64,000 nt of DNA, taken from NCBI GenBank assembly GCA_031409275.1, contig JANNXA010000016.1:32001-96000 (forward strand), read 5' to 3'. The DNA comes from Planctomycetota bacterium. Its GTDB lineage: Bacteria; Planctomycetota; B15-G4; SIAN01. Positions 15,007 to 64,000 of this stretch are shown here, one piece after another (within the stretch, counting starts at the first letter, position 1; every line of letters starts with the position of its first letter). The notes under the pieces were generated by a model that made no database searches, was not told where the DNA came from, and was given only the letters and a program-made list of their open reading frames with translations. The position numbers and the translations under genes are program-made.

Positions 15007-15231
15007 GGCGCGCGATTGTAGGGGACGGCGCAACCCGATGATTGCCGCGACGGCGCCCGCCGCCCGCGTCCACCGTCGGAAACTTCGTCCTCATCCCGCC
15101 ACGAAGAGGCGCTTCAGCCCGGGGGCGAACGACCTCGCAAGGGCAACCGGCGAACAACTCTCGGGGTCGACGATTCGAGCGGGTTGTGGTTCCGTCGGCG
15201 CAACCTAGAACGCTGCGCCGGAGATTGCGCC

Positions 15232-17370: not shown

Positions 17371-17402
17371 CACCCCACGACCGACGATTTCGGAGAGCCT
17401 CC

Positions 17403-32681: not shown

Positions 32682-32798
32682 GCGTGCGATCCAGCGACGA
32701 CGAGTGGTGGCGTGACGTCGAGGCTTCGGATCACCGGAATCGAGAACGTGAGCGACTCGGGCGGACGTGAAAACGATTCCCGCCTGGCGCCGCTCTCA

Positions 32799-32956
32799 GG
32801 GCGCCTGACAGAATGGACGCGTCGCGCCGAGACCGAGCGAGGCCACCCAGGACGAGGAGACCGAAGCAGGCGACTCTGAAGAGTCGCCGATGGAGGTCGA
32901 CGGAGTCATGGGTGGCCGCAGCCGGTCGAACGCAGCGGACATTCTGTGAGGCGCCC
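32799..32956. mobile_element. 158-bp MITE-like element, copy 1
   Basis: 17-bp terminal inverted repeats (gggcgcctgacagaatg / cattctgtgaggcgccc, 16/17 match) flanked by TCA direct repeats; about 93% identical to 54390-54547. Confidence 0.85.
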
Positions 32957-34441
32957 TCAGTCGCGCGGGGCCGCGGAAAGCACCACCTTCAGGTCGGGCG
33001 TCTTCCCGTCCTGGACCACGCGCGGGAGCGCCACGCGCGTCGGCGCGATGCCGCTGGCGAGCAGCAGGCCGGTGAAGTTGTCGCGCCATTCGAGCTCGAG
33101 CGCGACGGCGCCGATCGGGAGTTCGAGCTCGGGAGGCGTGCGTGAGAGCGGATCGGCGAAGCCGTGGCCCACTTCGGCGCCATCGCTGGCGCGGAACGTC
33201 GCGACGAGCGTGCGCGGGATCACGATCTGCTCGTTCACGTCGCGCGGCGCCTCGGCCGGCCATTCGAGCAGCAGGCGCACGATCCGCGTCGGCGGGCGCA
33301 CCGGCTTGATGCGCAGGTCGAGCCGCTCGACCTCGCGACCGCCAAGCTCCACCACCACCTCGTGCAGCGTCGCCACGACGCCATCGGTGCGGACGATCTG
33401 CAGTCGCCACCGCCCCGCCGGCAGCGGACCGAGCGCGAAGCTGCCGTCGCCGCCGAGCGGCGCGAAGCCGCCCTGCAGCGCAGCGGAGTGGCCCGCGACG
33501 TCCGACGCCGCGAGGCGCGCCACACTCGCGATCGCTTGCGGCAGAGGCGCCTCGATTCCATCCCACGCCGCACTGCCGACGATGCGGAAGCCCGGCTGCA
33601 GTTCCACCAGCACGTCCCGGTCATCGCGCTCGCCAAGCTCGAGCGTGAACTCCGCCGGCAGCTGACCCGCCACCCGAACGACGCCGCTCCAACGGCCCGC
33701 ATCGAGCGCCGTGAAGCGAGCGCGCCCCTCCTCGTCGAGCCAGACGCCGCGCCGCGCGCTGCCCTGGCGGAGCAGCACGCCGGCGCGATCGTCGAGATCG
33801 GGCTTCGGGTTCGGGCGCACCACGATCGTCGCGGCGCAACCCGCTGCCGCGATCGCCGAGAGGTCGACGCGCAACGTGAACGGCGTCGTCAGCTCCGATT
33901 CGAGGAAGGTCGCGAAGCGCCGACCGCCCAGCATCAGCTCCGCCTCGATCTCGCTGCGATCGAGCGGCGCCAGCAACGACGCGGTCAGATCTCCGTTCGG
34001 ATTGCGGGTGAACTCCGCGAGCCGCGCGCCGCGCTGCACCAGCCAGACACGCGGGATGGTGCCGGCGGCCGCTGCCGTCAGCGTCGGCTCGTCGAGCGGG
34101 CGCGCGTGCTCGTCGGCCAACGCACCCGTCACCTCGACCCGCTCGCGGCGCAGCGGCTCGAAAGCGAGATCGTCGCGCGACACGAGCGGCGCGGCGGGAG
34201 GAGGGACGGCAGCGCTCGCGGGAGCCGCGGCGCGCGCAACGTCGTTGCGACGCCGCGCGACTTCATCCAACGCGGCGGGCGCCGCGCGATCGCCCTCGGC
34301 CGGCATCTCGAACTCGTTGCCCACGAAAATGCGCGTCGCGCCTCGCTCGCCGACCAGTGCCCAGGTCAGGAGCACGCCGATCAACGCGATCGCGCCACCA
34401 GCAGCGAGCACGATCAGGCGCGACCGAGGTGCGGCGCTCAT
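32957..34441 (-). CDS. Membrane-anchored hypothetical protein with carboxypeptidase-regulatory-like (Ig) modules
   Basis: N-terminal TM segment; DEEGRARFTALDAGRW and DGSFALGPLPAGRWRL motifs. Confidence 0.65.
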   Translation of the reverse strand: MSAAPRSRLIVLAAGGAIALIGVLLTWALVGERGATRIFVGNEFEMPAEGDRAAPAALDEVARRRNDVARAAAPASAAVPPPAAPLVSRDDLAFEPLRRERVEVTGALADEHARPLDEPTLTAAAAGTIPRVWLVQRGARLAEFTRNPNGDLTASLLAPLDRSEIEAELMLGGRRFATFLESELTTPFTLRVDLSAIAAAGCAATIVVRPNPKPDLDDRAGVLLRQGSARRGVWLDEEGRARFTALDAGRWSGVVRVAGQLPAEFTLELGERDDRDVLVELQPGFRIVGSAAWDGIEAPLPQAIASVARLAASDVAGHSAALQGGFAPLGGDGSFALGPLPAGRWRLQIVRTDGVVATLHEVVVELGGREVERLDLRIKPVRPPTRIVRLLLEWPAEAPRDVNEQIVIPRTLVATFRASDGAEVGHGFADPLSRTPPELELPIGAVALELEWRDNFTGLLLASGIAPTRVALPRVVQDGKTPDLKVVLSAAPRD

Positions 34442-48607: not shown

Positions 48608-51600
48608 TCACTCCTCGAAGAGCGCGACGACGCACGATCCGTCGAGCCGCACGAGCAGCGTGTCGGGCTCGGCCCCCGGCTGCGCATCGAGTCGCTCGAA
48701 GCGACGCGTGGCGCGATCGAGTCGTCGCACCTGAAGACGCGCCACGTCGCTGCCCGCTGGCGCATGCAGCAGCAGCGTCACCGGAATGGCGAAGGGAGCC
48801 GGAGCGCGGCCGAGTTCGATCGCATGGATTCGGCCGATGGTGGCGTGCGCCGCGGCGACGGGCGCGACGACGCTTCCGGCGGCATCGATGTAGAGCGGCG
48901 GCCCGGCCGTGCTGGCGATCGCGAGCAGATCCGCGTCGGCGCTGCTGCCCACCGGCAGGCGCAACTCGAGCGCGCCATCGAAGTTCGCCACCGCGGCCTG
49001 CGCGTCGGGGCCGACCACGGCGCGGACGACATCGACCACCAACGTCACGTCGCCGCGCGCGCCGCCCGGCACCGTCAGTTCGACGCCGAGCCGCGAGCCG
49101 TCCCAGATCGACTCGGGCAGTGCGGCACCGAAGAGCTCGGGCGTCGCCGGCAACGGCATGAGTTCGATCGAGCCGACCGGGTCAGGCACGTTGCGCACTC
49201 GCATTCGCGGCGCGCCATCGGGCGGCGTCCACGGGATCACCTCGATCGCCCCGCCCGCGGCCACACCGCGCGCGCGCTCGGGGTGAACGACGACGAGCGG
49301 CGGCGGGCCGAGCGAATCGCTGCGGCCGCCCTCGAGCTCGAGCGTGTAGCGATCGCGTCGCTCGCGCAGCGTGAACTCGGCGCGCTGGCCATCCTTCACC
49401 GCGGTGACGCGATCGCCAACGTGGACGCCCATGAGGCCGATCGTGCCATCGCCGTAGCTCACGCCCTGGTAGAGCGTGCGCCGGTCGTGCGCCTGCTCGA
49501 CGTGGACGACGACGCCCGACTGTTCCGCCGTACCGAGGCCGGCGAGCCGCAGCGTCGCGTCGAAGCCGCCGCTGTCGCCGTCACGGATCACCAGCGCCAA
49601 CTCGTCGCCGACATGGTTCTCGAAGGGCGGCGGCACCACACCGCCACGTTCGAGCGGCGTGGTCACCGGCGCGAAGGAGTCGCCGCGCATCCCTTCGTGC
49701 CATTCCTCGATCTGCTGCCAGCAACTGCGGCCATTCCACATGCCTTGGTTGGTGTAGGCCTGGTGGTTGCCGTGCCAGCAGATCTTCCAGTCCGAATACT
49801 GGTAGCCCATGATGCAGCGGCACATCTCGGGGTAGCTCAAGCCGCGGTACTCACCCTGCGGAGCGCCGAGGTACTCGTCGAAGAGCCCGAGCCCGTAGTG
49901 GCCGAACTCGTGCACGACGGTGCTGTAGTGGCCGCGCGCATCCCACGGCCCTTCCCAGTGGCGGCCGAAGTTGATCGCCGTGTTCCATGGCGCGTTGACG
50001 GCGTCGTAACGATGGCGGATGCCGGAGACGCTCGCGTTGGGATGGATGTGGTTGCACGCCCAATCCCACACGTCCGCCTGGTTCCAGCCGACGCCGCCGT
50101 CGACGATGACGACCCGGCCGTAGGTCAGCTGGCCGTCGCTCGCGGCGTAGAGGAACTCGGCCGCACGGCGCATCCCACGCCCGATCTCCTCGAGATAGGC
50201 GCGCGACGCATCCCATTCGGCGCAGACGTAGAGCGAGTAGCGCGTGGTCGAGCGGGCCAGCACGATGTCGCGGCCGCCTCCGGGCGTGACGGTCGGCAAC
50301 TGCTCGCGGCCGTCGTTGCCGATGGTCGCGCTGGAAAGCACGACGTCGTAGAGCAGGTTCTCGACGTCCTCGCGCCGCTCCTTCGCCGCAGGCTCGCGCC
50401 AGATCACCTTGCGCGCGCGCACCTGCCAGCCGCCGGCCGGCACGCCGCCGAACCCGTAGCCGCCGCCGCCATCCGAGATCGTTCGCGCGATCGCCTGGCC
50501 GTCGCGTTCCAACGTGACGTCGGCGCCGGCGACCGGCCGACCTTGCACGTCGAGGATGCGGCCGCTCAGGTTGCTGGCCCACGGCACGGGGACACCAACG
50601 TCGATCGTCTTGCGGCTGCGCGCCCCGTCGCGACCGCTCGACACCTCGAAACGGACCAACTGCGCGCCGCCGCTCGCGAGGTTCGGACGCACGATCCAGC
50701 TGCGCTGCACGATGGCATCGAGCGGCAAGTCGCCCAGCCGCGTTGCATCTTCGGGCGCGGCCAGAAGCTCGAGTCCCGGCGAGAAGGAGGCATCGATGCG
50801 CAGCTGCGCGCACGGCCCGACCGCACCATTCAGCGCGTTCTCGAGCTCGACCACGACGCGCGTCGCGTCGCTGGCCGGCAACGGCTCGAGGAAGGCGCGG
50901 CTGCGAACCGGCGCACGCTCGTCCAGCGGCGCGGGCGCGCCACGTTCGGCAGCCCCGAATTCCGCGGCGAGCGAGCGAGTCGCGCCGGGAGGCAGTGGCG
51001 CCGGATCGGCGTAGAGGGCGAGCGCGCTGTCGGGGCCGAGCGGCAGGTCGGGCGTGAACGCAAGATCGAAGGGGGCGGCGAGGAACGGCGCGAGCGGACC
51101 GAGCAGCAGGCGATCGGGAGCCTGGCCGCCGACACCACGCAGCGCCAGTTCGCGGCGACCGATGCCCACGACAGCGGGCAGCGCATCGCCAAGCCACTCG
51201 CCGGTCAGCGTCGCGATGCGGCGGCGGCCGAGGCGAAATTCCGGCGCATCATCGAAGCCGTCGATCAGGTCGAGCAGCAGGCGCGTGCCGACCACATGGG
51301 CAACGCCCCCGCGGTTCGAAACGTGGAGATCGAGACGAACTCGCGTGCGCGCCGCGACGTCCTGTTCGTCGACCCGTGGCGTCGCTCCGGTGAGGACGAC
51401 GACCACTTCGAGGTCGCCCTCGCGCGTCACCAGTTGCAGCCCGTCGCCTCGCCCCGCGATCCCGGTGCGCGGCGCCAGCATGCGCGCCTCGCCATCGACC
51501 TCGAGCGAAACGCGGCTCGTCGTCGCATCGGGAAACAACGAGAGGAGCGGCGCGAAGCCGCCCTCCCCACGTTCCGGTCGCGCTGCTGCGGCGAAGCCGC

Positions 51601-51958
51601 CGTCTTCGCCAAGCGCGACGCTGAAGGCGCCGAGGTGCTGCACGGCGACGCCGCTCGCCGGCGCGGGAATCGTGGTCCCGTCGGCGTCAGGACCGGGCGC
51701 GAGGAAGGCCGCGAGACGCCGCCACTGCGCCGCCTTCCGCGCGAAGGGCGAATCGGCGGGCGCTGGCGATGCCGCGACGAGCGCGTCGGCAAGCGCGGGC
51801 ACTTCCGCGAACGCCCCGCGCTGCAGCGCCGCCAGCAGCACGCGGTAGCGCTCCGCCTCGCTGGCCGCGTCGTCGCTCGAGCCGGATCGCGCCAACGCCC
51901 CCGCCGTCGCCCCTGCGACCGCGATCGCCGCGACGAGCGCCCGAGCGCCGGCTCTCAC
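48608..51958 (-). CDS. Large exported multidomain protein with carboxypeptidase-regulatory-like domain and CLCA-like Zn metallopeptidase motif
   Basis: Signal peptide; LSGRILDVQGRPVAGADVTL..SDGGGGYGF; LYAASDGQ, VVHEFGHYGLGLFDEY, CIM. GTGA overlap with the upstream gene. Confidence 0.75.
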   Translation of the reverse strand: MRAGARALVAAIAVAGATAGALARSGSSDDAASEAERYRVLLAALQRGAFAEVPALADALVAASPAPADSPFARKAAQWRRLAAFLAPGPDADGTTIPAPASGVAVQHLGAFSVALGEDGGFAAAARPERGEGGFAPLLSLFPDATTSRVSLEVDGEARMLAPRTGIAGRGDGLQLVTREGDLEVVVVLTGATPRVDEQDVAARTRVRLDLHVSNRGGVAHVVGTRLLLDLIDGFDDAPEFRLGRRRIATLTGEWLGDALPAVVGIGRRELALRGVGGQAPDRLLLGPLAPFLAAPFDLAFTPDLPLGPDSALALYADPAPLPPGATRSLAAEFGAAERGAPAPLDERAPVRSRAFLEPLPASDATRVVVELENALNGAVGPCAQLRIDASFSPGLELLAAPEDATRLGDLPLDAIVQRSWIVRPNLASGGAQLVRFEVSSGRDGARSRKTIDVGVPVPWASNLSGRILDVQGRPVAGADVTLERDGQAIARTISDGGGGYGFGGVPAGGWQVRARKVIWREPAAKERREDVENLLYDVVLSSATIGNDGREQLPTVTPGGGRDIVLARSTTRYSLYVCAEWDASRAYLEEIGRGMRRAAEFLYAASDGQLTYGRVVIVDGGVGWNQADVWDWACNHIHPNASVSGIRHRYDAVNAPWNTAINFGRHWEGPWDARGHYSTVVHEFGHYGLGLFDEYLGAPQGEYRGLSYPEMCRCIMGYQYSDWKICWHGNHQAYTNQGMWNGRSCWQQIEEWHEGMRGDSFAPVTTPLERGGVVPPPFENHVGDELALVIRDGDSGGFDATLRLAGLGTAEQSGVVVHVEQAHDRRTLYQGVSYGDGTIGLMGVHVGDRVTAVKDGQRAEFTLRERRDRYTLELEGGRSDSLGPPPLVVVHPERARGVAAGGAIEVIPWTPPDGAPRMRVRNVPDPVGSIELMPLPATPELFGAALPESIWDGSRLGVELTVPGGARGDVTLVVDVVRAVVGPDAQAAVANFDGALELRLPVGSSADADLLAIASTAGPPLYIDAAGSVVAPVAAAHATIGRIHAIELGRAPAPFAIPVTLLLHAPAGSDVARLQVRRLDRATRRFERLDAQPGAEPDTLLVRLDGSCVVALFEE

Positions 51959-53106
51959 CAGAGGTTTCGCCGCAGCCACTCGAGCGTGACATCGACGCTG
52001 CCATCCACCGGCAGAGCGACCTCGACTTCGACCTTGTCGTGCGCAGGCTTCGTCGTTGGATGGCTGGCGCCGACCACTTCGAACGGCGCACCCGGCTGCT
52101 CGACGATCACCAACGTCGTCGCCGCGCCGCTGCCGTTCCTCACCTTGTAGACGAGCTTCGTGCGTTGGTCGTAGGCGACCACCTTGTTCCAGCGATCGCG
52201 CCGCTCGTTCTCGTTGCCCTGGAAGGTGACGTAGCGATCCACCACGAAGTCGCGCGCGTGACCGACGTAGAGCTTCGCCTTGCCGCCGAGCGGCGTCGCG
52301 GACAGCACGTCTTCGCCCAGCAACCCGGGTTGCCCGTTCTCCTGCGGCGTCAGCAGGCGGATGCGTCCCGCCGCCAGGAACGGCCGCGCCAACGGCGAGC
52401 CGGCGCGATTCTCGAGCTCGACTTCGATGGCAGGAAGGGCGCCGTAGCGCGCCGGATCGAGGACGTAGCGCCGCTTGACCGGGACCTGCTCGACGCGGAA
52501 CAGCTCGACTTCGCGCCGCTCCCCTTGCGCGAGCGTCAACGCGGCGAGTTCGCCGCCGTCGAAGACGACGCGTGCGGCGTCGAGATCCTGGCCCGAGCGG
52601 TTGGTCACTTCGACCGTCCCGACCAGCGTCATCGAAGTGCCCGCCGCGTCGAGCAGACCGCTGTAGGCGACGCGCCAACCGATGCCGGCCAGCAGGTAGC
52701 GCGCGGTCAGCGTTGCCGTGCCCGCGTTGCCCGCGTCGACGTCGAAGTAGGTCATCGCGCCGCGCCGGCGAATCTTCTCGCGCTGCGTGATCGAGGCGCT
52801 GCCGCTCGACGGAGTCACGTCGAAGCGCAGCGAGCCTTCATCGAGCCGCTCGCGACTCCAATCGAAGCGCAGGCGATTGGGGCCCTGCGCCAGCGTGATC
52901 TTGCGCGTCGTGGCGACGCTCGCCGGCTGGTCGCTGGTGAGGCGCAGCGTGACCGTGTCGGGCGCGGTCGGCACGACCACTTCGACGAAGCCGTCGCCGT
53001 CGGGGCGAACCGGCGCTTGCGCGAGGAGCGCTGCCGGAACGACCACGCCGGAGAAGAGCGCGGCGAGCAGCGCGCGGGCAATGACGGTGGGCGTGGAGTG
53101 GTTCAT
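51955..53106 (-). CDS. DUF4139-like exported protein
   Basis: Signal peptide; YLLAGIGWRVAY, VTNRSGQDL, LAAGRIRL..LGED..TP, YKVRN. Confidence 0.7.
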   Translation of the reverse strand: MNHSTPTVIARALLAALFSGVVVPAALLAQAPVRPDGDGFVEVVVPTAPDTVTLRLTSDQPASVATTRKITLAQGPNRLRFDWSRERLDEGSLRFDVTPSSGSASITQREKIRRRGAMTYFDVDAGNAGTATLTARYLLAGIGWRVAYSGLLDAAGTSMTLVGTVEVTNRSGQDLDAARVVFDGGELAALTLAQGERREVELFRVEQVPVKRRYVLDPARYGALPAIEVELENRAGSPLARPFLAAGRIRLLTPQENGQPGLLGEDVLSATPLGGKAKLYVGHARDFVVDRYVTFQGNENERRDRWNKVVAYDQRTKLVYKVRNGSGAATTLVIVEQPGAPFEVVGASHPTTKPAHDKVEVEVALPVDGSVDVTLEWLRRNLW

Positions 53107-54350
53107 GGGTGGAGGTTCGTCTTCTTGACGGAGTAGGTGAGCTCGACCTTGCCGCCGGCGGGGACGTCGATCTTCCATTCGAGCGTCGTCTGGTCCTTGC
53201 GATTGGCGGGCGCGCTCGACGCGGTGAGCTCGAACGATGGCGTCGAGACGTGCTCCGTGACCGTGAGAGCGCGCGCGTCGGCGGCGCGGCTCTCGAGGAG
53301 CAGCTTCACGCTCTCCGTCTCGGAGTAGGAGATCAGCGCTTTGTTGTAGTCGCCGAAGACGAGGTCGCCGCGCTGCAGGTCGACCACCGTGCGCTCCACG
53401 GCGAAGTCGTTGGTGGGCCCGAGGTCGAGTTCGAGTTCCTGGCCCGGCGCGAGCGGCCCGAGTCCGCCGCTGCGCACGAAGCGCTCGGTCGCGGTCGCCT
53501 CGCGCTCGACCAGGAAGAGGCTGCCCGGCTGCAGCGTGACGCCGCCGAGCCCCGCATTCGCGGCGTTCGCCACCTTGGCGACCCGCCACACGCGCCCGCC
53601 CCAGCCGTTCACGTCGAAGCGCCATTCGAGCGTCGTCGCCAGCTCGCGTTTGGCGAGCGCGACGCGCCGCACGGTGACGCCATCGGGCAGCGAGAGCGGC
53701 GCGCCGAACGGCACCACCGTGTGCTCGGCCAGATCCTGCGCGAGCGGCGGCGTCGGCAGGCCGGGGGCGGCGTCGGGAGCCGGATCGGGCGCGCGGCCGT
53801 GCAGGACCGCGCTCGATGGCACGGTCCGGACCACGCCGAAGACGGCGCGCACGTCCGCCTGCGTGAAGCTCTCGCCGCTGCCGTTGCTGACTTCGAGCTC
53901 CTGCACCAGGTCGAGCGTCCACTTGGCCGCGTCGAAGGCCGCGGTGTAGGCCACGCTCGCCGCGAGGCCGCGCGCCGCGTAGCGCAACCGCAGCCGCTCG
54001 GGCCCCGGCTTCGTCGCCTCGAGCTCGACGAAGGTCGTGTTGCCGAGGTCGTCGCGTCGGAACAGCGAGACGACTTTCACTTCGCCGGCGCGGTCGAGCG
54101 GCACCACCTCGAGCGACGCGACATCGGCGTTGCCGCGCACGAAGTCGAGCCGCACCGACGAGCGTCCCTGCGCGAGGAGCACCGCCACCGTCTCCTCGAC
54201 GATCGTCAGATCGCCGGGATAGACGAGCAGGCGCGGGATCGAGGCGGCGGGCGCGGGAGCGCCTTGCGGAGACGCGGCGACCAAAGCAGCGCCGCCAGCG
54301 AGCAGCGCGGCCAGCACCGTCGCACCGCGGAGAGGGACGAAGCGATGCAA
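53103..54350 (-). CDS. DUF4139-like exported protein (paralogue)
   Basis: VYPGDLTIVEE, LRYAARGL, VSNGSGESF, LQPG, LEWKIDVPAGGKVELTY. Confidence 0.7.
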   Translation of the reverse strand: MHRFVPLRGATVLAALLAGGAALVAASPQGAPAPAASIPRLLVYPGDLTIVEETVAVLLAQGRSSVRLDFVRGNADVASLEVVPLDRAGEVKVVSLFRRDDLGNTTFVELEATKPGPERLRLRYAARGLAASVAYTAAFDAAKWTLDLVQELEVSNGSGESFTQADVRAVFGVVRTVPSSAVLHGRAPDPAPDAAPGLPTPPLAQDLAEHTVVPFGAPLSLPDGVTVRRVALAKRELATTLEWRFDVNGWGGRVWRVAKVANAANAGLGGVTLQPGSLFLVEREATATERFVRSGGLGPLAPGQELELDLGPTNDFAVERTVVDLQRGDLVFGDYNKALISYSETESVKLLLESRAADARALTVTEHVSTPSFELTASSAPANRKDQTTLEWKIDVPAGGKVELTYSVKKTNLHP

Positions 54351-54389
54351 GCGAGACTCCTTCGCGAGAGACGAGCGGTGCGACGCTAA

Positions 54390-54547
54390 GAGCGTCTAAC
54401 AGAATGGACGCGTCGCGCCGAGACCGCGCGAGGCAGCCCAGGACGAGGAGACCGAAGCAGGCGACTCCGAAGAGTCGCCGATGGAGGTCGACGAAGTCAT
54501 GGGCGGCCGCAGCCGGTCGAACGCAGCGGACATTCTGTTAGGCGCTC
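54390..54547. mobile_element. 158-bp MITE-like element, copy 2
   Basis: Terminal inverted repeats gagcgtctaacagaatg / cattctgttaggcgctc (16/17 match) flanked by TAA direct repeats (54387-54389 and 54548-54550). Confidence 0.85.
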
Positions 54548-54558
54548 TAAGGGCCGAT

Positions 54559-55533: not shown

Positions 55534-55833
55534 GCCTCGCTCCATTTCGACCTGCGGGAAAGGCGCGCGCGACTTCGGGCGCGAGGCGGGGGAGGCTACG
55601 AGGGCCGAGCGGGAAGGGCGAGCTGTCGAGCTTTGGGAACAGGAAGGCACCAGTTGATCGGGAGGTGACCGCGCAGGATCGTCACCCCGCCACAAGGAGT
55701 CTCCCCTGGGAAACGGCGCCTCACCGATTCTCCTGACCCGTTCACCCGCCGATTGCGCCTCAGATTCCGGCGGCCGCTCCCGACACAGCGCCCCGATCCA
55801 CCTTCTCGTGTCGAGCTTCCTCCGGAGACCAAC

Positions 55834-56430
55834 ATGGCACAGCGAAAGACCCCCTCGAAGCAGCGCACCGCAGCGAGCCCGTTCGTCGAGTTGACGATCG
55901 AGCAGCTCTACGAAGAGTCGCGGAAGATCGCACACGCGATGTTCCGGAACGAGCCGAGATCCGTCTCCTTCTCGCCGACCAGCATCGTCCATTCGGTGCT
56001 CGCCGACGAGGCGGCGCGCGGCTCGCTGCCGAGCGCCTCGTCCCCCCTCGATCCAACCGAAGCAACGCATCTCCTGCGTCGAATCCGCGTGGCAATCCGG
56101 AACAAGCTGATCGACCGCGCACGCGGCCGTCGGGCGGGGAAGCGCGGCGGTAACGCCAAGCGAGTCGAGCTCGATGAAGCGATGCGAGCCGAGGAACTCG
56201 GACCGGCAGAGATCGCTGAGATCCACGACCTCACCGAGCACCTCATGTCGAACGTGAACGCAATGGATCGCCAGCAGGCGGAGGCGTTCACGTTGCAGTT
56301 CTTCCACGGGCTGACCGTCGAGGAGGTCGCAGCGATCCTGGAAATCCCGATGGAAGCAGCGAAGACGCGGGCGCGCCGCGGTCGGGAGTGGATCGCCGCC
56401 CAAATGCGCCAGCAGAGCGGCGAGGGGTAA
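55834..56430 (+). CDS. ECF sigma factor, divergent TIGR02999/ECF43-like
   Basis: LYEESRKIA..FRNE..SFSPTSIVH (compare TLQPTALVH), LIDRAR.R.A.KRGG, LQFFHGLTVEEVA.IL; GGAG upstream of the ATG. Confidence 0.85.
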   Translation: MAQRKTPSKQRTAASPFVELTIEQLYEESRKIAHAMFRNEPRSVSFSPTSIVHSVLADEAARGSLPSASSPLDPTEATHLLRRIRVAIRNKLIDRARGRRAGKRGGNAKRVELDEAMRAEELGPAEIAEIHDLTEHLMSNVNAMDRQQAEAFTLQFFHGLTVEEVAAILEIPMEAAKTRARRGREWIAAQMRQQSGEG

Positions 56431-56541
56431 TCGCGCAGCACCTCGACACCGCTCGCGCACGAACGAGGGCGCCTCCACGCGGAGGCGCCCTCGTCACGCC
56501 TGACGCCCGCGGCTACGCTCCCCCGCCCGAGGGGGTGATCG

Positions 56542-59500
56542 ATGGCTCAGAAGAGAGTGCGACCGACCGCCGCGGCGATACCGGCGACGGCGCCGGTCCC
56601 GACGCACACTCGAACGGCTGGGAGCGACTCTGCGGTCGAGATCGAGGGCTATCGCATCGTCACCCGGCTCGGCGAGGGTGGCTGCGGAGTCGTCTATCTC
56701 GTCGAGGAGTTGAAGCCGGAGCGCGGCTCTGCGCAGCAGTTCGCGGCGAAAGTCCCGCGCGACGATTTCGACCTCGATGCAAACGCTACTCGCCGCCTCT
56801 CCGCGCTTCTCGAGGAGGAGATCAGCAAGCTGCGGGAGCTCCGTGACGAGCCGTCGATTGCCGCCTACCGCGGCACGCCCAAGGCGACCCGGAACGGCAA
56901 GCCAATCCCCTGCGTCCTCACCCGCTACCTGAGCGGCGGCGAACTCCTCAAAGAACTCGACGCGAGGTCGCCGCTGCACATGCGGCTCGCCGCGATGAGC
57001 GAGGTCTGCTACGCCGTCGCGCTTCTGCACGATCGTCACATCGTCCACGGCGACCTCAAGCCCGCGAACCTCCGCTACGACCGGCTGATCCGCGGCAAAC
57101 CCGTGCTGCTCGACTTCGGGCTCGCTGAACCGCTGCGACGGATCGGCCGCGATGCGGAACCGCAGATCGCCTCGCAACGGATCGCGGGAACGCTCGGCTA
57201 CATGGCACCCGAACGACTGCAGCGCGCCGCAGACTGCAACGACGCCGTCGACGTCTTCGCGTTGGGAGTGATCACGTTCGAGCTGCTGACGGGAAAGCGC
57301 GCCTTCTACGACTTGAAGGGACCCGGACCGGACGCGGTCGTGACGGCCATGAAGAGGTGCGCCCCCGAGGTCGAGAGTGCGCTCAATTCAATCCTCGCCG
57401 CCAAGAAGCTGGACGAGCTGCTCCCCTACCTGCGCACCGCGCTGGCGCTCGACCCGAAGCAGCGAACCATCCGTGCACGCAACTTGGCCCATTGGCTCGA
57501 CCACTTCGCGGTGCTGGAACGATTCCGGACCATCCTCCCGAAGCAGGGCTCCAGTGACACGGCGTTCGACACCTACAAGCGGCAGTTCCTCGAAGGGCTG
57601 AAGCACTTCCCGCAGCTCGGCGTCGGCTATCAGTCGGGTGGAAAGGGTGTGCAGGTCCAGACGAGGAGCCCGTACCAGCTCGACCTGCCCGAGATCAAGA
57701 TCGACCTCGTGGCGCAACGCAGGGGGACCGAGCACGCGACGCTGGCAGCCAGCAGCGAAGCCGGCACGATGTCATTCGACGCGCGCGACGCGTTCGAGCA
57801 GGCGCGAAGCGAGCTGCAAGACCAATCGAAACTCGGGTTCTTCCTCATCGGCGGCCCCGGCACCGGCAAGTCGACCTTCTTGCGTCTCCTCGCACTGCAA
57901 GCGATGACGAGCGACGGGCGCCAACGGCTTGGCCTCGGTGAGTCGCGCGTCATTCCCGTGATGGTGCAGCTCGCCGCCTACAAGGATTTCACTCCGCCGG
58001 ACCAGAGATCGCGAGGGAGGTCGAAGGTCCCTCAGCTCAGGCTGGCCCAATTCGTCAATTCCGTCATCGCGCAGACTTGTGCCGACTGCCGCGTTGAACC
58101 CGCGGTGCTTGCAAAACAGGGCGACCTGCTTCTCCTGCTCGACGGACTCGACGAGGTCGAGACGCAGCGCGACGAAATCGTGACGCAACTTTGCGATGCG
58201 CGTTGGCCGTGGAAGGGCCACCCGACGGTCGTCACTTGCCGGCCGGCTGGATTCGAGAGCCTCAAGCCCAAGCCGACCGATCACTTCGCGATCTTCCAGC
58301 TCGGCGGAGTCGACCTGCGCACGGCTCAGGCATTCGTCCGCAAGTGGTTTTTCCACGTCGCGACGAGCCACACCGTGCGCTCGAAGGAGAACGACCCGGG
58401 GGCCCATGGATCCGCGGACCGCATCGCGCAGCACGAACAAATGGCCGAATCGCTCTGCCAACAGTTGCGCGAACGGCGGATCGAGCTGTCGTCGCTGGTG
58501 TCGATCCCCCTGCTGCTGACGATGGTTTGCATCGTCCATCGCTTCCGCTGCCGGAACGGGCAAGTCGACCAGCCGCTCCCGGCGACGATTCACGATCTGT
58601 ACGAGGCCTTCGTGCAGACGGCGCTGCGGGAGTGGCCGCACTTCCGGAGCAAGGCGTCGCCAGGACATCGCCACGATTCACGGAAGCCCGCCGCGAACGA
58701 AGGCAACGACGGCGGAGACGATCCGACGACGCCCGACGAACTGCGGCTTGCCCTGGAATCGATCGCGCTCTATCTCCGCAGCGTGGCGTTGAAGGCGAAG
58801 GACGACGCCAAGAAGCAGACCACTCCGGCGACGCGCACGACCGAGCGTGCCGGTCGCCAGGCACTGGACACAATTCTGAAGGATGAGGCGTGGGCCGCCC
58901 TCCCGTGGGAGGGCGCGAAGTTCGAGCGCTTCTGGCAATTGGCCAACGACGAGTCGGGGCTGTTCGCCAACCACGGCGGCGCTGACCAGTGGGGCTTCCT
59001 CCACCTCGGCATCGAGGAGCACCTTGCCGCCAGCGCGTTGGCGCGCGACCCGCTCCGGGTTGGCTTCGGCATCGACCAGCTGGTCGAGCGCTTCGATGCG
59101 GTTGCGTTGCGAGAGGTCATCGGCGACTTCGCCGCGACCGCCCATGAGCTTCATGTCGAGGCGCTATTGGCCGCGGTGCTGCGCTCCGATCGGATCGCGG
59201 CCTTCGAGCAGCCGCTGGAAGTGGTGCTGCGCGCGCTGACGCGCCGTTTCGCGCCGACGGGGCGTGTGACGTCTGATCCTCGGCAGTCACAGATTCGCAC
59301 GCGCTTCCGGCAGATGCTGCTGCCAATCCTTCTGCAACCGGCCGCCGCCGCGGAGAAGCTTCGAGCTCGGCAGCTCGCCGCACGGATGGCGGCATTCCGT
59401 CAGCTGCGCGGGTGGGTTGTTCTGGCTTCCGAAGCCTGGAAGGAGCTCCGCTCAGCGTTGGCGGCGGATCACCACTTCGGCTCTCTCGAACTCGAGCTTT

Positions 59501-60258
59501 GGGCTCGCAACGAACTCGAAACGCGTGAATTCCAACGCGATCCCAAGAGCGGGATCGTGTTCGTGAAGGTGAAGGGAGCGCGCTTCGGCTTCGCGCAGGA
59601 CAAACCGGATGCAAGCTGGAACCACGACTATGAGCTGCAGCGCCACCAGCAGAAGCGCGAACGAGTCGTCGACCTGGCCGACTTCTGGCTGGCGACTGCC
59701 CCCGTCACCAACGAGCAGTACCGCCGCTTCCTCGACGATCGCGATGGCGATGCGGAGAACGACGATCTCCCGGAGTCGATGACGACTGCGGGCTTCGATG
59801 GACCGCAGCAGCCCGTCACCGGAGTCACCGCACTCGACTGCGAGAAGTTCTGCCGTTGGTGCTCGTCGCAAAGCGGTCCGCCGATCCGACTGCCCACCGC
59901 GGATGAGTGGGAGTACGCCTGCGTGGCGGGCAACGCCGCGCAGCAGGAGTACTGGAGCGGAAACGGAGAGGAAGCACTTGCAGCCGTCGGCTGGTACGCC
60001 GCGAACTCGGGCGGTACCACCCATCTGGTCGGACAGAAGCCGCCAAACGCCTTCGGACTCCACGACCTGCATGGCAACGTCTGGGAGTGGTGCGCTGACG
60101 ATCACCCATGCGACGCCGGCAGCCGCGTGGTTCGTGGCGGCAGCTTTGCCTTCGACGTCGCCGCGATCGCGCGGTCGGCCTTCCGGAACGCCTTCCAGCC
60201 GGGCTTTCGCTTCCGGTTCTTGGGCTTCCGCGCCGCCAAGGGTGTCTCCACTTTTTGA
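56542..60258 (+). CDS. DGR target protein: Ser/Thr kinase - NACHT NTPase - FGE-sulfatase (C-type lectin fold) domain
   Basis: Kinase: LGEGGCGVVY, AAK, HGDLKPAN, DFGLA, GTLGYMAPE, DVFALG. NACHT: GGPGTGKST, LLLLDGLDE, VTCR, PLLL, FLHLGIEEHLAA. FGE: RLPTADEWEYAC, PNAFGLHDLHGNVWEWC, RVVRGGS, GFR. Confidence 0.93.
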   Translation: MAQKRVRPTAAAIPATAPVPTHTRTAGSDSAVEIEGYRIVTRLGEGGCGVVYLVEELKPERGSAQQFAAKVPRDDFDLDANATRRLSALLEEEISKLRELRDEPSIAAYRGTPKATRNGKPIPCVLTRYLSGGELLKELDARSPLHMRLAAMSEVCYAVALLHDRHIVHGDLKPANLRYDRLIRGKPVLLDFGLAEPLRRIGRDAEPQIASQRIAGTLGYMAPERLQRAADCNDAVDVFALGVITFELLTGKRAFYDLKGPGPDAVVTAMKRCAPEVESALNSILAAKKLDELLPYLRTALALDPKQRTIRARNLAHWLDHFAVLERFRTILPKQGSSDTAFDTYKRQFLEGLKHFPQLGVGYQSGGKGVQVQTRSPYQLDLPEIKIDLVAQRRGTEHATLAASSEAGTMSFDARDAFEQARSELQDQSKLGFFLIGGPGTGKSTFLRLLALQAMTSDGRQRLGLGESRVIPVMVQLAAYKDFTPPDQRSRGRSKVPQLRLAQFVNSVIAQTCADCRVEPAVLAKQGDLLLLLDGLDEVETQRDEIVTQLCDARWPWKGHPTVVTCRPAGFESLKPKPTDHFAIFQLGGVDLRTAQAFVRKWFFHVATSHTVRSKENDPGAHGSADRIAQHEQMAESLCQQLRERRIELSSLVSIPLLLTMVCIVHRFRCRNGQVDQPLPATIHDLYEAFVQTALREWPHFRSKASPGHRHDSRKPAANEGNDGGDDPTTPDELRLALESIALYLRSVALKAKDDAKKQTTPATRTTERAGRQALDTILKDEAWAALPWEGAKFERFWQLANDESGLFANHGGADQWGFLHLGIEEHLAASALARDPLRVGFGIDQLVERFDAVALREVIGDFAATAHELHVEALLAAVLRSDRIAAFEQPLEVVLRALTRRFAPTGRVTSDPRQSQIRTRFRQMLLPILLQPAAAAEKLRARQLAARMAAFRQLRGWVVLASEAWKELRSALAADHHFGSLELELWARNELETREFQRDPKSGIVFVKVKGARFGFAQDKPDASWNHDYELQRHQQKRERVVDLADFWLATAPVTNEQYRRFLDDRDGDAENDDLPESMTTAGFDGPQQPVTGVTALDCEKFCRWCSSQSGPPIRLPTADEWEYACVAGNAAQQEYWSGNGEEALAAVGWYAANSGGTTHLVGQKPPNAFGLHDLHGNVWEWCADDHPCDAGSRVVRGGSFAFDVAAIARSAFRNAFQPGFRFRFLGFRAAKGVSTF
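60109..60239 (+). repeat. DGR variable region (VR)
   Basis: 131-nt match to 62388-62518 with 14 mismatches, all opposite TR adenines; lies at the extreme 3' end of the target gene. Confidence 0.97.
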
Positions 60259-60380
60259 CTTCACCACCTCACCACGAAGATCGCTGCGCCCACGATCGAC
60301 ACCGGCGTTGACAACCGGGCCCACCCGCGGTGTCGTGCTCGTATTTCGTTCGATTGACGGTGTGCTGGTAGGTGGGTAGT
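60258..60380 (+). promoter_or_regulatory. Nested imperfect inverted repeat downstream of the VR (candidate DGR target-recognition hairpin)
   Basis: cgacaccg (60297-60304) pairs with cggtgtcg (60328-60335); ccacctcacca (60264-60274) pairs with tggtaggtgg (60366-60375) with one bulge. Confidence 0.45.
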
Positions 60381-60433
60381 GGGCGGAGGGCGCGTAGTGC
60401 GACGTCGTGTGCGTCGCCGCTGGAGCCACGCCC

Positions 60434-60982
60434 TTGCGAGTCCATCTCCTGACGCTGCGATACAGCAGCACGCTTGGCGCCTTCGATACGGCACCGCTCA
60501 CCGCGCTGACCCACGGCTGCGAAGTCGTCGCCTTCCGCGAGCACTTCTTCCAAGTCGCGGACGTGCCGCATGCGCTGTGCGTCGTCACCGTCCATGACCC
60601 GCCGCCGCTTGCGCAAGGAGGCCACGAGGCGCGCTCCCGTGCGGACCACGGGGCGCCTTCCGGCTTGCCGCGCACCCGCACGCCTCGTGAAAGCCGTGAC
60701 CTCCGTCCCTTCGCGGCGCTGGATGAGGCACAACGCCAGCTCTTCAACCGGCTGCGTGAATGGCGATCGGCGACGGCGAAGTCGGAGGGGGTCCCTCCGT
60801 ACGTGCTGCTCACCAATCGCGAGGCGGTGCGCATCATCCTCGCCGCACCCGATTCGCTGACCACGCTCGGCCAGCTCGAAGGGATCGGCGCCAGCAAGGT
60901 CACGCGCTACGGCCATGCGATCCTCGGCTGCCTCCAGGGTGCGCCCGTCGCCAGCGCGCAAGCCGCGGAGCCGACGTCGTGA
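60434..60982 (+). CDS. HRDC domain protein (DGR accessory)
   Basis: LFNRLREWRS..AK.EGVPPYVLLTN....I....P.SL..L..LEGIG..KV.RYG..IL is an HRDC pattern. The TTG at 60434 has GGAG upstream; an alternative GTG is at 60407. Confidence 0.9.
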   Translation: MRVHLLTLRYSSTLGAFDTAPLTALTHGCEVVAFREHFFQVADVPHALCVVTVHDPPPLAQGGHEARSRADHGAPSGLPRTRTPRESRDLRPFAALDEAQRQLFNRLREWRSATAKSEGVPPYVLLTNREAVRIILAAPDSLTTLGQLEGIGASKVTRYGHAILGCLQGAPVASAQAAEPTS

Positions 60983-61356
60983 CGGCCCCCATCGATCGTC
61001 CGCGCGCACGCGAAGCCGGACCGGAACTCCTGGTGCTGGCCCGTTTCGAGGAGGGCACTCGGTGGCTCCTGGATCACACCGCACGCTGGCCGAAGCACGC
61101 GCGCTTCACCCTGACGCAACGGGTCGAGAACCATGCGCTCGACATCGTCGAGCTGCTGGTCCACGCGCGCTACGAGCCGCGTGGGCGCGCGGCACGGCTT
61201 GGCGACGTCAACCTGCGCCTCGAACGGATGCGCTTCCTGTTCCGGCTGGCGCATCACACGCGGGTGATGCATGCCGCCGGCTTCGAGACGGCCATGCGTT
61301 GGCTCGACGAGAGCGGGCGGATGTTGTTCGGCTGGCGCCAGGCGCTCGCGCCATGA
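60979..61356 (+). CDS. avd: DGR accessory variability determinant Avd
   Basis: 125 aa; WPKHARFTLTQRV, LERMRFLFRLA and ESGRMLFGW match the Avd four-helix-bundle pattern. GTGA and ATGA overlaps couple it to both neighbours. Confidence 0.9.
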   Translation: MTAPIDRPRAREAGPELLVLARFEEGTRWLLDHTARWPKHARFTLTQRVENHALDIVELLVHARYEPRGRAARLGDVNLRLERMRFLFRLAHHTRVMHAAGFETAMRWLDESGRMLFGWRQALAP

Positions 61357-62369
61357 GACGGAAAGGCGGTCATTGGCCGCTCATCACCCGCTTCGACCAT
61401 CTCTGCGCCTCGGCATGGCGAGCCGCCCGCGGCAAACGACAGACGGCCACGGTCGCGCGGTTCCTCGAACGACTCGAACCCGAGGTGCTGCAGCTGAAGC
61501 GCGAGCTCGAGACCCAGAGCTGGCGACCGCAACCACCCACCCGTTTCCGCATCCTCGATCCGAAGGAGCGCACGATCACCGCAGCGGCGTTCCGCGATCG
61601 AGTCGTCCACCACGCGTTGATCGACGCCATCGAGCCAGCCCTCGAGCGCCGCATGGTCGCCTGCAGTTTCGCCTGCCGGAAGGGCATGGGAACGCATCGC
61701 GCGCTCGATCACGCCCGACGACTGGTGCGCCGTTTCGGCTGGTTCCTCAAGCTCGACGTGCGCAAGTGCTTCGACTCGCTGCGGCACGACGTGGTCCTGG
61801 CAGCGGCTCGGCGGGTCATCAAGGGACGCGCGACGCTCGCCTTGATCGAGACGATCGTCCGCCACGACGCGAGCGCCGTCGCCGAGGGGCGCGGCCTCCC
61901 GATCGGCAGCCTCACCAGCCAGTGGCTCGCGAACCTCGTGCTGGACCAGCTCGACCACTTCGCGCTGGAGCAGCTGCGCGTTCCCGGCTACGTGCGGTAC
62001 ATGGACGACTTCGCGTTGTTCGGCGGTTCCAAGGGAGAGCTATGGCGCTGGCATGCGGCCGTCGAGCGCTTCCTCCGCGAACGGCTCGGTCTCGAACTGA
62101 AGTCGCAGGCCACCTGCCTCGCGCCGACCACGGAGGGGCTGCCGTTCCTTGGCTGGAGGATCCACCCGGGGACGACGCGGTTGAAGCCGGAGAGTCGGAG
62201 ACGATTACTGCAGCGCCACCGACGACTGACGCGGTCGCTGCAACATGGCGGGATGACGGAGGAGCAGTTCGCGGTGCGAGCACGCAGCCTGTTCGTCCAC
62301 GCCTCAGCGGGATCGACTCTCGCATGGCGCCGCCTCGTTTCGACGAGGGAGCCCATGCCTCGAACTTGA
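61353..62369 (+). CDS. DGR reverse transcriptase
   Basis: 338 aa; AARGKR, DPKER.I.A..FRDRVVHHA, SFACRKG.GTH, LKLDVRKCFDS, GLPIGSLTSQ (61893-61922, DGR-type SQ motif), YVRYMDDF, FLGW; no maturase or endonuclease domain. Confidence 0.96.
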   Translation: MRRKGGHWPLITRFDHLCASAWRAARGKRQTATVARFLERLEPEVLQLKRELETQSWRPQPPTRFRILDPKERTITAAAFRDRVVHHALIDAIEPALERRMVACSFACRKGMGTHRALDHARRLVRRFGWFLKLDVRKCFDSLRHDVVLAAARRVIKGRATLALIETIVRHDASAVAEGRGLPIGSLTSQWLANLVLDQLDHFALEQLRVPGYVRYMDDFALFGGSKGELWRWHAAVERFLRERLGLELKSQATCLAPTTEGLPFLGWRIHPGTTRLKPESRRRLLQRHRRLTRSLQHGGMTEEQFAVRARSLFVHASAGSTLAWRRLVSTREPMPRT

Positions 62370-62387
62370 TTGAACGTCCGTCGGCCG

Positions 62388-62518
62388 TGCGACGCCGGCA
62401 ACCGCGTGGTTCGTGGCGGCAGCTTTGCCAACGACGACGCCGCGAACGCGCGGTCGGCCTACCGGAACGCCAACCAGCCGGGCAATCGCAACCGGAACTT
62501 GGGCTTCCGCGCCGCCAA
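62388..62518 (+). ncRNA. DGR template repeat (TR)
   Basis: Adenine-rich copy of the VR with eight AAY codons in the VR frame; begins 18 nt after the RT stop. Confidence 0.95.
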
Positions 62519-62603
62519 TGTGTCGCCAACGCCCGATCGGCGCGCTCGCCGTGCGAACGGCATCGCGTCGCAGAGCACGGGACACCCAGGTCGACGGACG
62601 TGG

Positions 62604-62682
62604 CCGAGGTGACGAGCCTCGGACGAATAGCTGTGGCCGCGCCGGGGCTCGTAGGCCGCAAGGCCGAGCGCTCCGGCGCGGC
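62604..62682 (+). other. Stem-loops downstream of the TR (candidate DGR RNA 3' spacer structure and/or terminator)
   Basis: ccgagg/cctcgg (62604-62622); gccgcgccgg (62636-62645) pairs with ccggcgcggc (62673-62682) and encloses ggcc-GCAA-ggcc; followed by gtttctt. Confidence 0.6.
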
Positions 62683-62821
62683 GTTTCTTCAGGACACCGG
62701 GTGCGACAGGAGCACTTGTCCGCGGTTTGACCCCGTGCGTCGGCAACTGCGCCTGAGTGGGCTCCAGGGCGAGGAATGGTGAAGCGCCTCGCCCTCTCAT
62801 CCCAGAACGAGGGTCACTTCA

Positions 62822-63934
62822 ATGGATCGACTGGAACGTAAGGACAAGCAGCTGCTCGTGGCGCCGAGCGGCGAGTGCGTGGACTGCGGGAGTTTCGACT
62901 ACGAGCCAACTGACGCGGGACGCGAAGCGATCCGCGCGGTGCGGACTCGCGCCCTGCAGAAGCGGGGTCGCCTGGCGGCTTCGATGGCCGGTCGCTGGCT
63001 GACCTTGAACGCGGCAGCGATGGGCGCGGCGGCGCTGCTGCCGATCGGGGCGCAGTGGCCGTTCCTGATTGGAGCGGGTGGCATCCTGCAGCGGTTCGCC
63101 ACCTCGGGGATGCTGCACGAGTCGGCCCATCTCACCCTGCTCTCCCGGCGCAAGTGGAACGATGCGATGGGCCGCATCCTGGCGGCGCTGTCGTTCGTCG
63201 ACTTCGACGACTGGAAGGCTGCCCACATGAAGCACCACGCGGAGTTGGCCACCATCCGCGACCCGGAGTACGCCGAGCTGACGCTCCACGGCATGAAGCT
63301 CGACGGCATGTCGCCGAGCGAGTTGGCCCGCATGCTCGTGGCCCCGTTCCAGCCCGCGATGTTGCTGCGCGCCGCGAAGGAGAGCCTGTCGGTCTTCCGC
63401 AAGCGCACGCCGTGGATCGTCTGGGGGGCGCTCGCGAGCCTCGCGCTCGCCTGCGGGCCGCTCGGCATGACGTGGCTGCTGACGTGGTTCATCGCCAGCT
63501 TCTCGACGCGCAAGTTCGTGTGGCTGATCGCCAACGCGACCGAGCACTCCTTCAAGTTGCAGAAGGAGATGGAGGACGGCTCGACGCCGGCCGGCCGGAA
63601 GCTGCGGCAGATGCCCCTGCGGCTGCGGTGGCTGGCCATCTCGCGCGAGCGGCGCGGCGCGCTGTCTCGGCTGATCAGCCCGGAGTCGGAGGCGCTCTAC
63701 CACGCGACCCACCACTACGACGCGGGTGCGCCGGGCGGCGGACTGAAGGAGCTGCACGCCACCCTTCTGCAGCACCAGCCGGGCTATGCGGAAGTGCACA
63801 AGATCACGGACGGCCTCTTCATCGCGAAGCCTGGGCGCGCGGCGGCGCTGGATGACTTGCGCGCCGGAGCCGCTTCGGACGACGCGATCATCAAGTCGGG
63901 TCTCTGCAACGCCGAGGCGCGTCGCGCGGCGTAA
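62822..63934 (+). CDS. Fatty acid desaturase-like membrane di-iron protein
   Basis: His boxes LHESAH, HMKHH and YHATHH, plus NATEH and hydrophobic segments. Confidence 0.82.
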   Translation: MDRLERKDKQLLVAPSGECVDCGSFDYEPTDAGREAIRAVRTRALQKRGRLAASMAGRWLTLNAAAMGAAALLPIGAQWPFLIGAGGILQRFATSGMLHESAHLTLLSRRKWNDAMGRILAALSFVDFDDWKAAHMKHHAELATIRDPEYAELTLHGMKLDGMSPSELARMLVAPFQPAMLLRAAKESLSVFRKRTPWIVWGALASLALACGPLGMTWLLTWFIASFSTRKFVWLIANATEHSFKLQKEMEDGSTPAGRKLRQMPLRLRWLAISRERRGALSRLISPESEALYHATHHYDAGAPGGGLKELHATLLQHQPGYAEVHKITDGLFIAKPGRAAALDDLRAGAASDDAIIKSGLCNAEARRAA

Positions 63935-64000
63935 GCCGTCAGTTCGGATCGCCTGTTCGACCGAGATCGGAGTCATCGACTCCGTGCGCCCGGGTGCTCT

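Follow-up and report, generated by a model that had tools for sequence, protein, structure and literature searches.

The window analysed here, a stretch of 64,000 nucleotides from the Planctomycetota bacterium assembly GCA_031409275.1 (contig JANNXA010000016.1), contains two repeats of 131 nt that differ at 14 positions. The question raised by this locus is whether a diversity-generating retroelement (DGR) has rewritten one repeat from the other, what the diversified protein does, and whether the rewriting still goes on. Past retrohoming at the variable repeat (VR) is established, because the mismatches are confined to adenines of the template repeat (TR), the VR ends a C-type-lectin (CLec)/FGE domain, and intact genes for a reverse transcriptase (RT), Avd and an HRDC protein adjoin the TR. 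The locus is an intact DGR of the known cellular C-type-lectin kind, with target, HRDC, Avd, RT and TR. For the whole, the explanation considered probable is that this DGR rewrote the lectin-fold tip of a kinase-NACHT sensor predicted to activate the adjacent extracytoplasmic function (ECF) sigma factor by phosphorylation, that the Phe-rich allele now present was likely selected or swept, and that a tandem motif after the VR likely marks the target.

The repeat pair and the retroelement genes

The repeats are located at the following positions of the window.

60109..60239, + strand: variable repeat VR, target residues ~1190-1233, 14 A-to-N changes (13 T, 1 G), from the computed alignment
62388..62518, + strand: template repeat TR, non-coding and AAC-rich, from alignment and masked genome scan
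60220..60239, + strand: invariant GC-rich 3' end common to TR and VR, IMH-like; the repeats diverge beyond it

The computed alignment pairs VR and TR at an offset of 2279 over 131 nt with 0 gaps and 14 mismatches, and thereby reproduced the pair that an earlier note had aligned by hand. All 14 mismatches are opposite TR adenines, as the same note had claimed, and 0 of the 107 non-adenine positions differ; the probability that 14 mismatches fall by chance within 24 of 131 positions is 8e-13. The TR contains 24 adenines, 22 of which precede the terminal AA common to both repeats and sit in eight AAY codons, three GAC, AGC, TAC and CAG. The earlier count of these adenines, their codons and the theoretical repertoire were right on recounting (4^22 = 1.76e13 DNA variants, or 1.05e13 protein variants), and the translations of both repeats came out the same. 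By base, 13 changes are A-to-T and one is A-to-G; five AAY codons have become TTY, and six variable codons now encode Phe. The label of the candidate initiation of mutagenic homing (IMH) site at 60220-60239 is given by analogy with PMC3240598.

When the 5.59-Mb assembly (55 contigs) was scanned on both strands with adenines masked, only this TR and this VR were identified. No remote DGR target was found in this genome (G000, 93% complete) on either strand at a masked-identity floor of 62%, and six other kinase-FGE fusions encoded there gave no match to the TR. For another genome of the comparison, G061 (loci L190, L197-L201), six remote VR-like ends differ from the local TR at 6-21 non-adenine positions, which suggests older targets or a second, unassembled TR.

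It is scarcely conceivable that the pair arose by ordinary duplication or as an assembly artefact. The changes being A/T, a reading on the reverse strand also scores 13 A-type mismatches; against this stand the chance value given above, the presence of both repeats on single contigs in two samples with matching pieces in a third, and the identity of the flanking genes as DGR genes. This reading was rejected on the alignment, the gene content and the sample contigs. Taken by itself, the TR/VR pair is what one expects of a DGR.

Between and around the repeats, the following elements were identified.

60407..60982, + strand: HRDC accessory gene, start uncertain, Pfam HRDC 1e-14
60979..61356, + strand: Avd accessory gene, NF033474 80.3 bits against a cut-off of 80, Pfam bAvd
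61353..62369, + strand: DGR reverse transcriptase, 338 aa, RVT_1, with R73, D135, I184-GSLTSQ and YMDD
62374..62386, + strand: 5' arm of the cPRT-stop RNA duplex, from RNA folding and clade comparison
62519..62690, + strand: spacer RNA with a conserved CCCAG, the cPRT-stop 3' arm at 62589-62601, a stem-loop closed by CGGACG and followed by AA, and a long stem at 62636-62682

The RT carries IGSLTSQ and YMDD, in agreement with the DGR-type motifs (I/V/L)GxxxSQ and YxDD. Its best match in the PDB is the RT of the BPP-1 DGR (bRT; 8ub7, E 2.3e-37), and equivalents of bRT R74, I181, Q187 and the catalytic Asp are retained. Three RT-like matches of lower identity occur elsewhere in the genome (C35:2040-2753, C47:67239-68090, C10:463-1053), none with a match to the TR. 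For comparison, 179 loci were fetched with the RT, and 86 of them gave 94 TR/VR pairs after filters; rows that were short, had more than two non-adenine mismatches or were reverse readings were dropped (9 of 72, then 12 of 107 and one duplicate), and three opposite-strand VRs were added. The HRDC gene is present in 70 of these 86 loci. A quick tree placed the RT in a clade of 17 rows (SH-aLRT 99), eight of the nine phylum-labelled ones being Planctomycetota; this points to a planctomycete host, as do the many ECF-kinase pairs of the genome.

The TR is enclosed by a perfect 13-nt duplex, formed by 62374-62386 with 62589-62601, and the spacer RNA has a fold z of -2.87. Over the 17 clade members, 79.9% of the cells of this cPRT-stop helix are paired and 31 cells are changed on both sides; 0 of 500 shuffles scored as high, and the helix beats all slid registers. 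When a register shift is allowed, at least 11 of the 12 positions are paired in 15 of the 17 rows. For BPP-1, the cPRT-stop duplex has been described together with a stem-loop and adenines (bioRxiv 10.1101/2023.10.23.563531), and duplex, stem-loop and adenines around the present TR match that arrangement as it is given there. No Rfam family matched 60200-62830 or the right junction of the block described below, and no sigma-70 promoter or terminator consensus was found in 60200-60480, the region before HRDC. Repeat anatomy, full gene set, intact catalytic motifs and the covarying RNA duplex around the TR are seen directly at this locus. The adenine-only mismatches, the position of the VR and the intact RT, Avd and HRDC genes bear out the claim of the earlier note that mutagenic retrohoming has occurred.

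The diversified protein and its predicted output

The VR lies in frame at the C-terminus of the target, within its CLec-fold domain, and the target gene follows that of a sigma factor.

56542..60258, + strand: DGR target, 1238 aa, with Ser/Thr kinase 37-309, NACHT 434-603, a helical region and FGE-sulfatase/CLec 1034-1233 (Pfam)
55834..56430, + strand: ECF sigma factor, 198 aa from an ATG start (the upstream TTG at 55753 gives 225 aa), Pfam Sigma70_ECF 5.7e-22

The kinase motifs and the Walker A and B motifs of the NACHT domain are intact. For the DGR target TvpA, the variable residues form an exposed binding site. The C-terminus of the present target matches FGE/CLec structures, TvpA among them: the AlphaFold model of the last 246 residues has a pLDDT of 85, and Foldseek aligned it to TvpA (2y3c) with an E of 2.4e-15. 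The domain order, which is directly seen, resembles that of a NOD-like receptor (NLR): an effector at the N-terminus, a NACHT domain of intact Walker motifs in the middle, and a sensor at the C-terminus. Judged from its sequence, the target likely works as a cytoplasmic, immune-receptor-like effector-NACHT-sensor protein.

Pkinase, NACHT and FGE occur together only in this protein among the best 120 of the 384 homologs listed. Kinase-nSTAND1-FGE proteins do occur among the homologs listed, and NACHT-FGE homologs carry TIR, SIR2, DUF4062, metallophosphoesterase or CHAT in the slot of the kinase; such swapping of effectors matches the clade 5D pattern described in PMC10907252. In nine members of the RT clade the target is a kinase-FGE protein in which a hydrophobic segment follows the kinase; other members have SIR2-, TIR- or DUF4062-NACHT-FGE or nSTAND1-FGE targets. 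Kinase-CLec DGR targets (PMC7517822, PMC5758913) and NACHT-CLec DGR targets (PMC10907252) have already been published, and links of FGS and DGRs to conflict systems have been described (PMC7159879).

The ECF gene ends 111 nt upstream of the target gene on the same strand. Its best NCBIfam match is TIGR02999, under the cut-off of that family. On alignment with the other ECFs of the genome, the DAED position of sigma2.2 reads SPTS, and the canonical ECFs have DAED. Thr49 (nt 55978) is a candidate phosphosite, since it stands at the position that is phosphorylated in EcfP, where a Thr is found as well (PMC8999054; PMC7826278 on related ECFs). Both the motif and the context of a kinase-dependent ECF were found, namely a Ser/Thr motif in place of DAED and an adjacent Ser/Thr kinase. 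An ECF gene ahead of a kinase gene is common in the genome, where 10 of 19 Sigma70_ECF matches lie directly upstream of a kinase. Because the kinase-NACHT-CLec target adjoins an ECF with Thr replacing DAED, ligand-triggered phosphorylation of the ECF is the likely output predicted for the target kinase.

The ECF and the DGR belong to one block, which is missing at the same site from the same-genus genome G004.

55553..64000, strand not applicable: block of ~8.4 kb that runs to about window position 64018 and is missing from the corresponding site of G004

In G004, an SDR gene and a helix-turn-helix (HTH) regulator gene are ~70 nt apart; in the present genome ~8.4 kb lie between them, from the ECF through a desaturase gene. 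This common block is an observation, and the difference is either a gain in G000 or a loss in G004. No anti-sigma gene is contained in the block.

By established DGR biochemistry, the TR RNA would be cis-primed, RT-Avd would copy it with errors opposite adenines, and the cDNA would replace the VR at the C-terminal CLec tip of the target. Binding of a ligand at this tip may then free the NACHT switch, oligomerisation would activate the kinase, and the kinase would phosphorylate Thr49 of the ECF. If so, phosphorylation of the ECF and the ensuing transcription would be a plausible readout for DGR-diversified NLR-like sensors, and one more easily assayed than cell death.

Alternatively, the DGR would act as described, but the target would be a stand-alone NLR-like defence protein whose kinase causes cell death or growth arrest, and the ECF would be a co-inherited neighbour and no substrate. 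This is unlikely, but it is a real rival, because the effector slot holds the defence effectors TIR and SIR2 in homologs, and because an ECF is directly upstream in only one (L021) of seven related kinase-CLec targets with upstream sequence, so that coupling to an ECF is not conserved across the clade. The best PADLOC matches of the kinase are the defence kinases MAD6 and PD-T4-6, by the generic kinase domain only, and programmed cell death has been proposed, untested there, for this DGR lineage (PMC10907252). These points are opposed by an ECF that lacks DAED and has the Thr typical of kinase-dependent ECFs, and by its position within the block missing from G004, on the strand of the target gene and 111 nt ahead of it.

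One further gene of the block has no shown link to the DGR.

62822..63934, + strand: fatty-acid-desaturase-family gene, inside the block

Its NCBIfam match to GntB is weak (43 bits against a cut-off of 380). With the queries used, neither the NACHT region nor the desaturase was found in five relatives, which are 78-94% complete. The block ends show no terminal direct repeat, and no tRNA is present on the contig. Beside the right end, past the end of the window (C16:96068-96274 of G000), the HTH regulator gene, intact in G004, is reduced to its ~70 N-terminal codons. Elsewhere in the window, an adjacent 2.1-kb direct duplication of 75% identity (15230-17368 and 17401-19548) and a 175-nt dispersed repeat of 90% identity (32786-32960 and 54377-54551) were noticed; the latter has inverted similarity within it and may be a small mobile repeat. 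Positions 48608-54350 of the minus strand hold two DUF4139-like genes and a gene for a 1356-aa protein with a carboxypeptidase-regulatory-like domain and an HEFGH metalloprotease-like motif, all syntenic in G004.

Base skew, activity and the target end

With 13 of 14 changes being A-to-T, the VR has the highest T share of the 94 related VRs, the 93 others having T, G and C in 43%, 44% and 13% of pooled changes. The binomial probability is 1.4e-4 and the beta-binomial one 2.4e-3, with ~0.2 for at least one such VR among 94; by codon-level permutation, a VR so skewed arose in 0.9% of rounds. Eight of nine changed VR codons are hydrophobic, the highest value of 158 VRs, and its six Phe compare with at most four in 105 others (106 of 126 proteins parsed). 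The T fraction correlated neither with RT identity (rho -0.05, n = 85) nor with GC, and was 40/77 for NACHT and 446/1072 for non-NACHT targets (P = 0.13). Sibling VRs under one RT differ in spectrum (P = 0.012 over 13 pairs), their T fractions being uncorrelated (rho -0.12, n = 13), as for those of L111 with T in 8/15 and 1/16. It follows that the T skew is a target-level property and not an RT-lineage trait. The second VR of L111, in a TIR-FGE target (L111:9608-11365, minus strand), has 9/16 A-to-C changes compared with 13% C in the pool.

For the RT of the BPP-1 DGR, a preference for dA opposite A was reported in vitro (22.2 of 51.6%), which substitutions such as Q187P raise (PMC7826257). 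An RT with an intrinsic, strongly dA-favouring error profile would explain the skew directly; in addition, the present RT departs from a 70% consensus at 11 positions. However, the Q of GxxxSQ and the equivalents of R74 and I181 are retained, and the T fraction is independent of RT identity and uncorrelated between siblings, which makes this explanation improbable, though less firmly so for this enzyme itself, whose genome has one VR. The bRT spectra reported in PMC7826257 and PMC12875486 are far milder than the present skew.

Both selection for a hydrophobic, Phe-lined surface and a deoxynucleoside triphosphate (dNTP) pool effect at each event fit the skew. By the latter, the skew would be set at copying, each retrohoming reflecting the momentary pool, here rich in dATP, without protein-level selection. 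The base spectra of the 97 other cellular-set VRs are overdispersed (chi2 348 against 204 +/- 21 by codon-level permutation), although lineage differences contribute to this. First and second positions of different codons tend to share the base (odds ratio 1.19 for T and 1.29 for G, P = 0.002 each), and the sharing persists at a distance of 9-20 codons; selection for Phe/hydrophobic or Gly/small residues would yield the same T-T and G-G correlations, and for C the correlation is not significant (P = 0.09). Overdispersion and between-codon correlation were found in the cellular and viral sets alike. The C-rich second VR of L111 and the lean of silent variable sites, which falls short of significance, also speak for a pool effect, but the silent-site set may include sites outside coding frames, and the present TR has no third-position adenine. 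A pure pool effect is rather unlikely. Selection or a sweep likely explains the Phe-rich allele, a reading somewhat favoured because the allele is fixed in the sampled contigs and Phe-rich VRs recur on related targets (L026, second target of L027). Natural VRs lean to one base beyond codon-level chance, this locus being the extreme case, and telling selection from per-event pools would change how repertoire sizes such as 4^22 are read.

The earlier note had also concluded on recent or ongoing activity. Past activity stands; ongoing activity found no support, since the contigs of three samples show a single allele. In X1 and X2 (depth 17.7 and 20.7), Logan contigs span the VR in one piece without alternative letters, and those of X3 carry the same allele over 60026-60202. 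These three samples are from one study, X1 and X2 both being possible sources of this DNA; the contigs of X4 and of X5, whose share was small, do not cover the VR. The check for adenine-restricted polymorphism proposed earlier, run on these contigs, gave no variant at contig resolution, and activity may go on at a low level. T-to-A rows in the sample comparison were discarded as VR variants: most of them come from the TR aligning to the VR, and the rest are a few short contigs, unrelated to it, at two positions. The word recent is weakened too, because zero drift at 107 non-adenine positions bounds TR/VR divergence only at 2.8% or less (95% bound) and is common in related pairs (64 of 94, in a set chosen for few such mismatches).

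Dormancy or recent silencing, with one old rewrite fixed and no further homing, is a distinct possibility, though not the preferred one, and is compatible with the anatomy of the favoured explanation. The single allele in three samples, the lack of a GRNA hairpin after the VR and the lack of a sigma-70 consensus promoter before HRDC all point that way. On the other side, all genes are intact with their catalytic motifs, the RNA duplex is perfect over 13 nt, non-adenine drift is zero, close relatives too are without the hairpin, and low diversity also follows from a sweep or repression (PMC10907252).

A hairpin after the VR was proposed as a conserved requirement (PMC3240598). A BPP-1-type hairpin, with a GC stem of 7-10 bp and a GRNA loop and placed 4-34 nt beyond the VR, was not found here, the best perfect short-loop stem having 5 bp and the region a z of -0.07. 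At 60297-60335, a stem of 8 bp closing a loop of 23 nt was rejected as a post-VR hairpin, being no better than shuffles. Instead, a tandem motif is located at the end of the target gene.

60257..60273, + strand: pyrimidine tandem motif of 8-nt period, GACTTCACCACCTCACC, a candidate target mark overlapping the target stop codon

It is the single genome-wide match to the clade form at two or fewer mismatches. A loose tandem pattern was found in 34/94 post-VR windows, compared with 1/94 post-TR and 18/4700 random windows, and in 0 of 17 non-target FGE genes of the genome. The motif occurs in 36/98 cellular-set but 0/60 viral VRs and GRNA hairpins in 5/98 and 31/60, a split to be read with the reservation that the cellular set may hold prophages and that kin are not independent. 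It co-occurs with HRDC (31/33 motif loci compared with 39/53; Fisher P = 0.02, kinship ignored). This distribution suggests that the motif likely helps to mark the target, a task for which phage DGRs rely on a hairpin, and the near-exclusive split offers a 17-nt element that may bear on how hairpin-less cellular DGRs find their targets. One RT-tree branch (L005, L006, L087, L089, L096-L099, L172) has a purine-rich GCG(A/G)AGC-type post-VR sequence and no pyrimidine tandem. For L026 (355 and 1207), one target has two tandem CLec domains that are both diversified, with the motif at the terminal VR only.

Several observations count against the explanation put forward at the outset. One hydrophobic window of the target (KD19 2.17, residue 647) exceeds the membrane-helix threshold; comparison with L111 suggests that it may be a NACHT PLLL helix. 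The tandem pattern, defined after seeing the sequences, matched only 4/10 held-out remote or inverted VRs. At silent variable sites the bases tend to follow the bias of the VR they belong to (P = 0.07, 39 sites), a trend not expected from protein-level selection alone. The contigs of X1, X2 and, in part, X3 gave no variant VR, although rare variants are lost from contigs. Finally, there is the upstream ECF in only one of seven related kinase targets. A more far-reaching explanation is quite unlikely: a mobile, self-contained island would evolve gene-expression inputs, an NLR-like kinase turning on its own sigma factor while the DGR rewrites the ligand pocket of that kinase, with the target addressed by a tandem repeat without hairpin and each rewrite stamped by the state of the nucleotide pool, here as near-pure A-to-T.

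Comparison with known systems

The element is a genuine DGR of known cellular kind with modestly new wiring, a useful test case and not a new system. Distinctive are the target architecture, the sigma-factor neighbour, the hairpin-less target end and the base skew. At title and abstract level, the mostly open-access literature gave no ECF-coupled DGR target, post-VR tandem motif or per-VR base skew.

With the BPP-1 DGR (PMC3240598, PMC7826257, PMC12875486, bioRxiv 10.1101/2023.10.23.563531) the locus shares the RT motifs, Avd, an AAC-rich TR, the invariant GC-rich 3' end, and the cPRT-stop duplex followed by stem-loop and adenines. It differs by the tandem 8-mer in place of a 7-10 bp GC stem with GRNA loop, and by the order Avd-RT-TR with HRDC. 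The Treponema denticola-type DGR (PMC5758913; PDB 2y3c), of architecture C with HRDC and a TvpA/CLec1 FGE-sulfatase target, has in common HRDC and Avd, the FGE-type CLec fold and the RGGS...GFR frame of the VR; here, in contrast, the target is a large multidomain signalling protein, and no remote targets were found in the genome.

The cellular CLec DGRs of clade 5, above all those of 5D, whose NACHT/nSTAND1-CLec targets occur in multicellular bacteria such as Thiohalocapsa PB-PSB1 (PMC10907252), are alike in the C-terminal CLec VR, the central STAND NTPase, the swappable N-terminal effector and the chromosomal setting. The supplement of that paper places Treponema, Haliscomenobacter and planctomycete RTs in clade 5, and these taxa appear among the present RT matches; the likeness is one of architecture, the RT tree holding no clade-5 reference. 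Unlike the clade 5D systems as described there, the present one has an N-terminal Hanks-type kinase with a kinase-type ECF sigma factor upstream, and a single DGR with a single target. Cyanobacterial Ser/Thr kinase-CLec targets (PMC7517822) share the N-terminal kinase, the hypervariable CLec C-terminus and the hypothesis of a ligand-gated kinase, whereas the present target has a NACHT switch inserted between them (the main text of PMC7517822 does not contain the word NACHT) and a candidate substrate ECF is encoded alongside.

Phosphorylation-activated ECFs (EcfP/PknT, EcfK/PknS; planctomycete ECF59, 61, 62 and 217; PMC8999054, PMC7826278) resemble the present sigma factor in the adjacent Ser/Thr kinase, the Thr-bearing replacement of DAED and the lack of an anti-sigma gene in the block. 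What sets this locus apart from them is the predicted input of the kinase, a lectin domain that is rewritten by a DGR and placed behind a NACHT domain.

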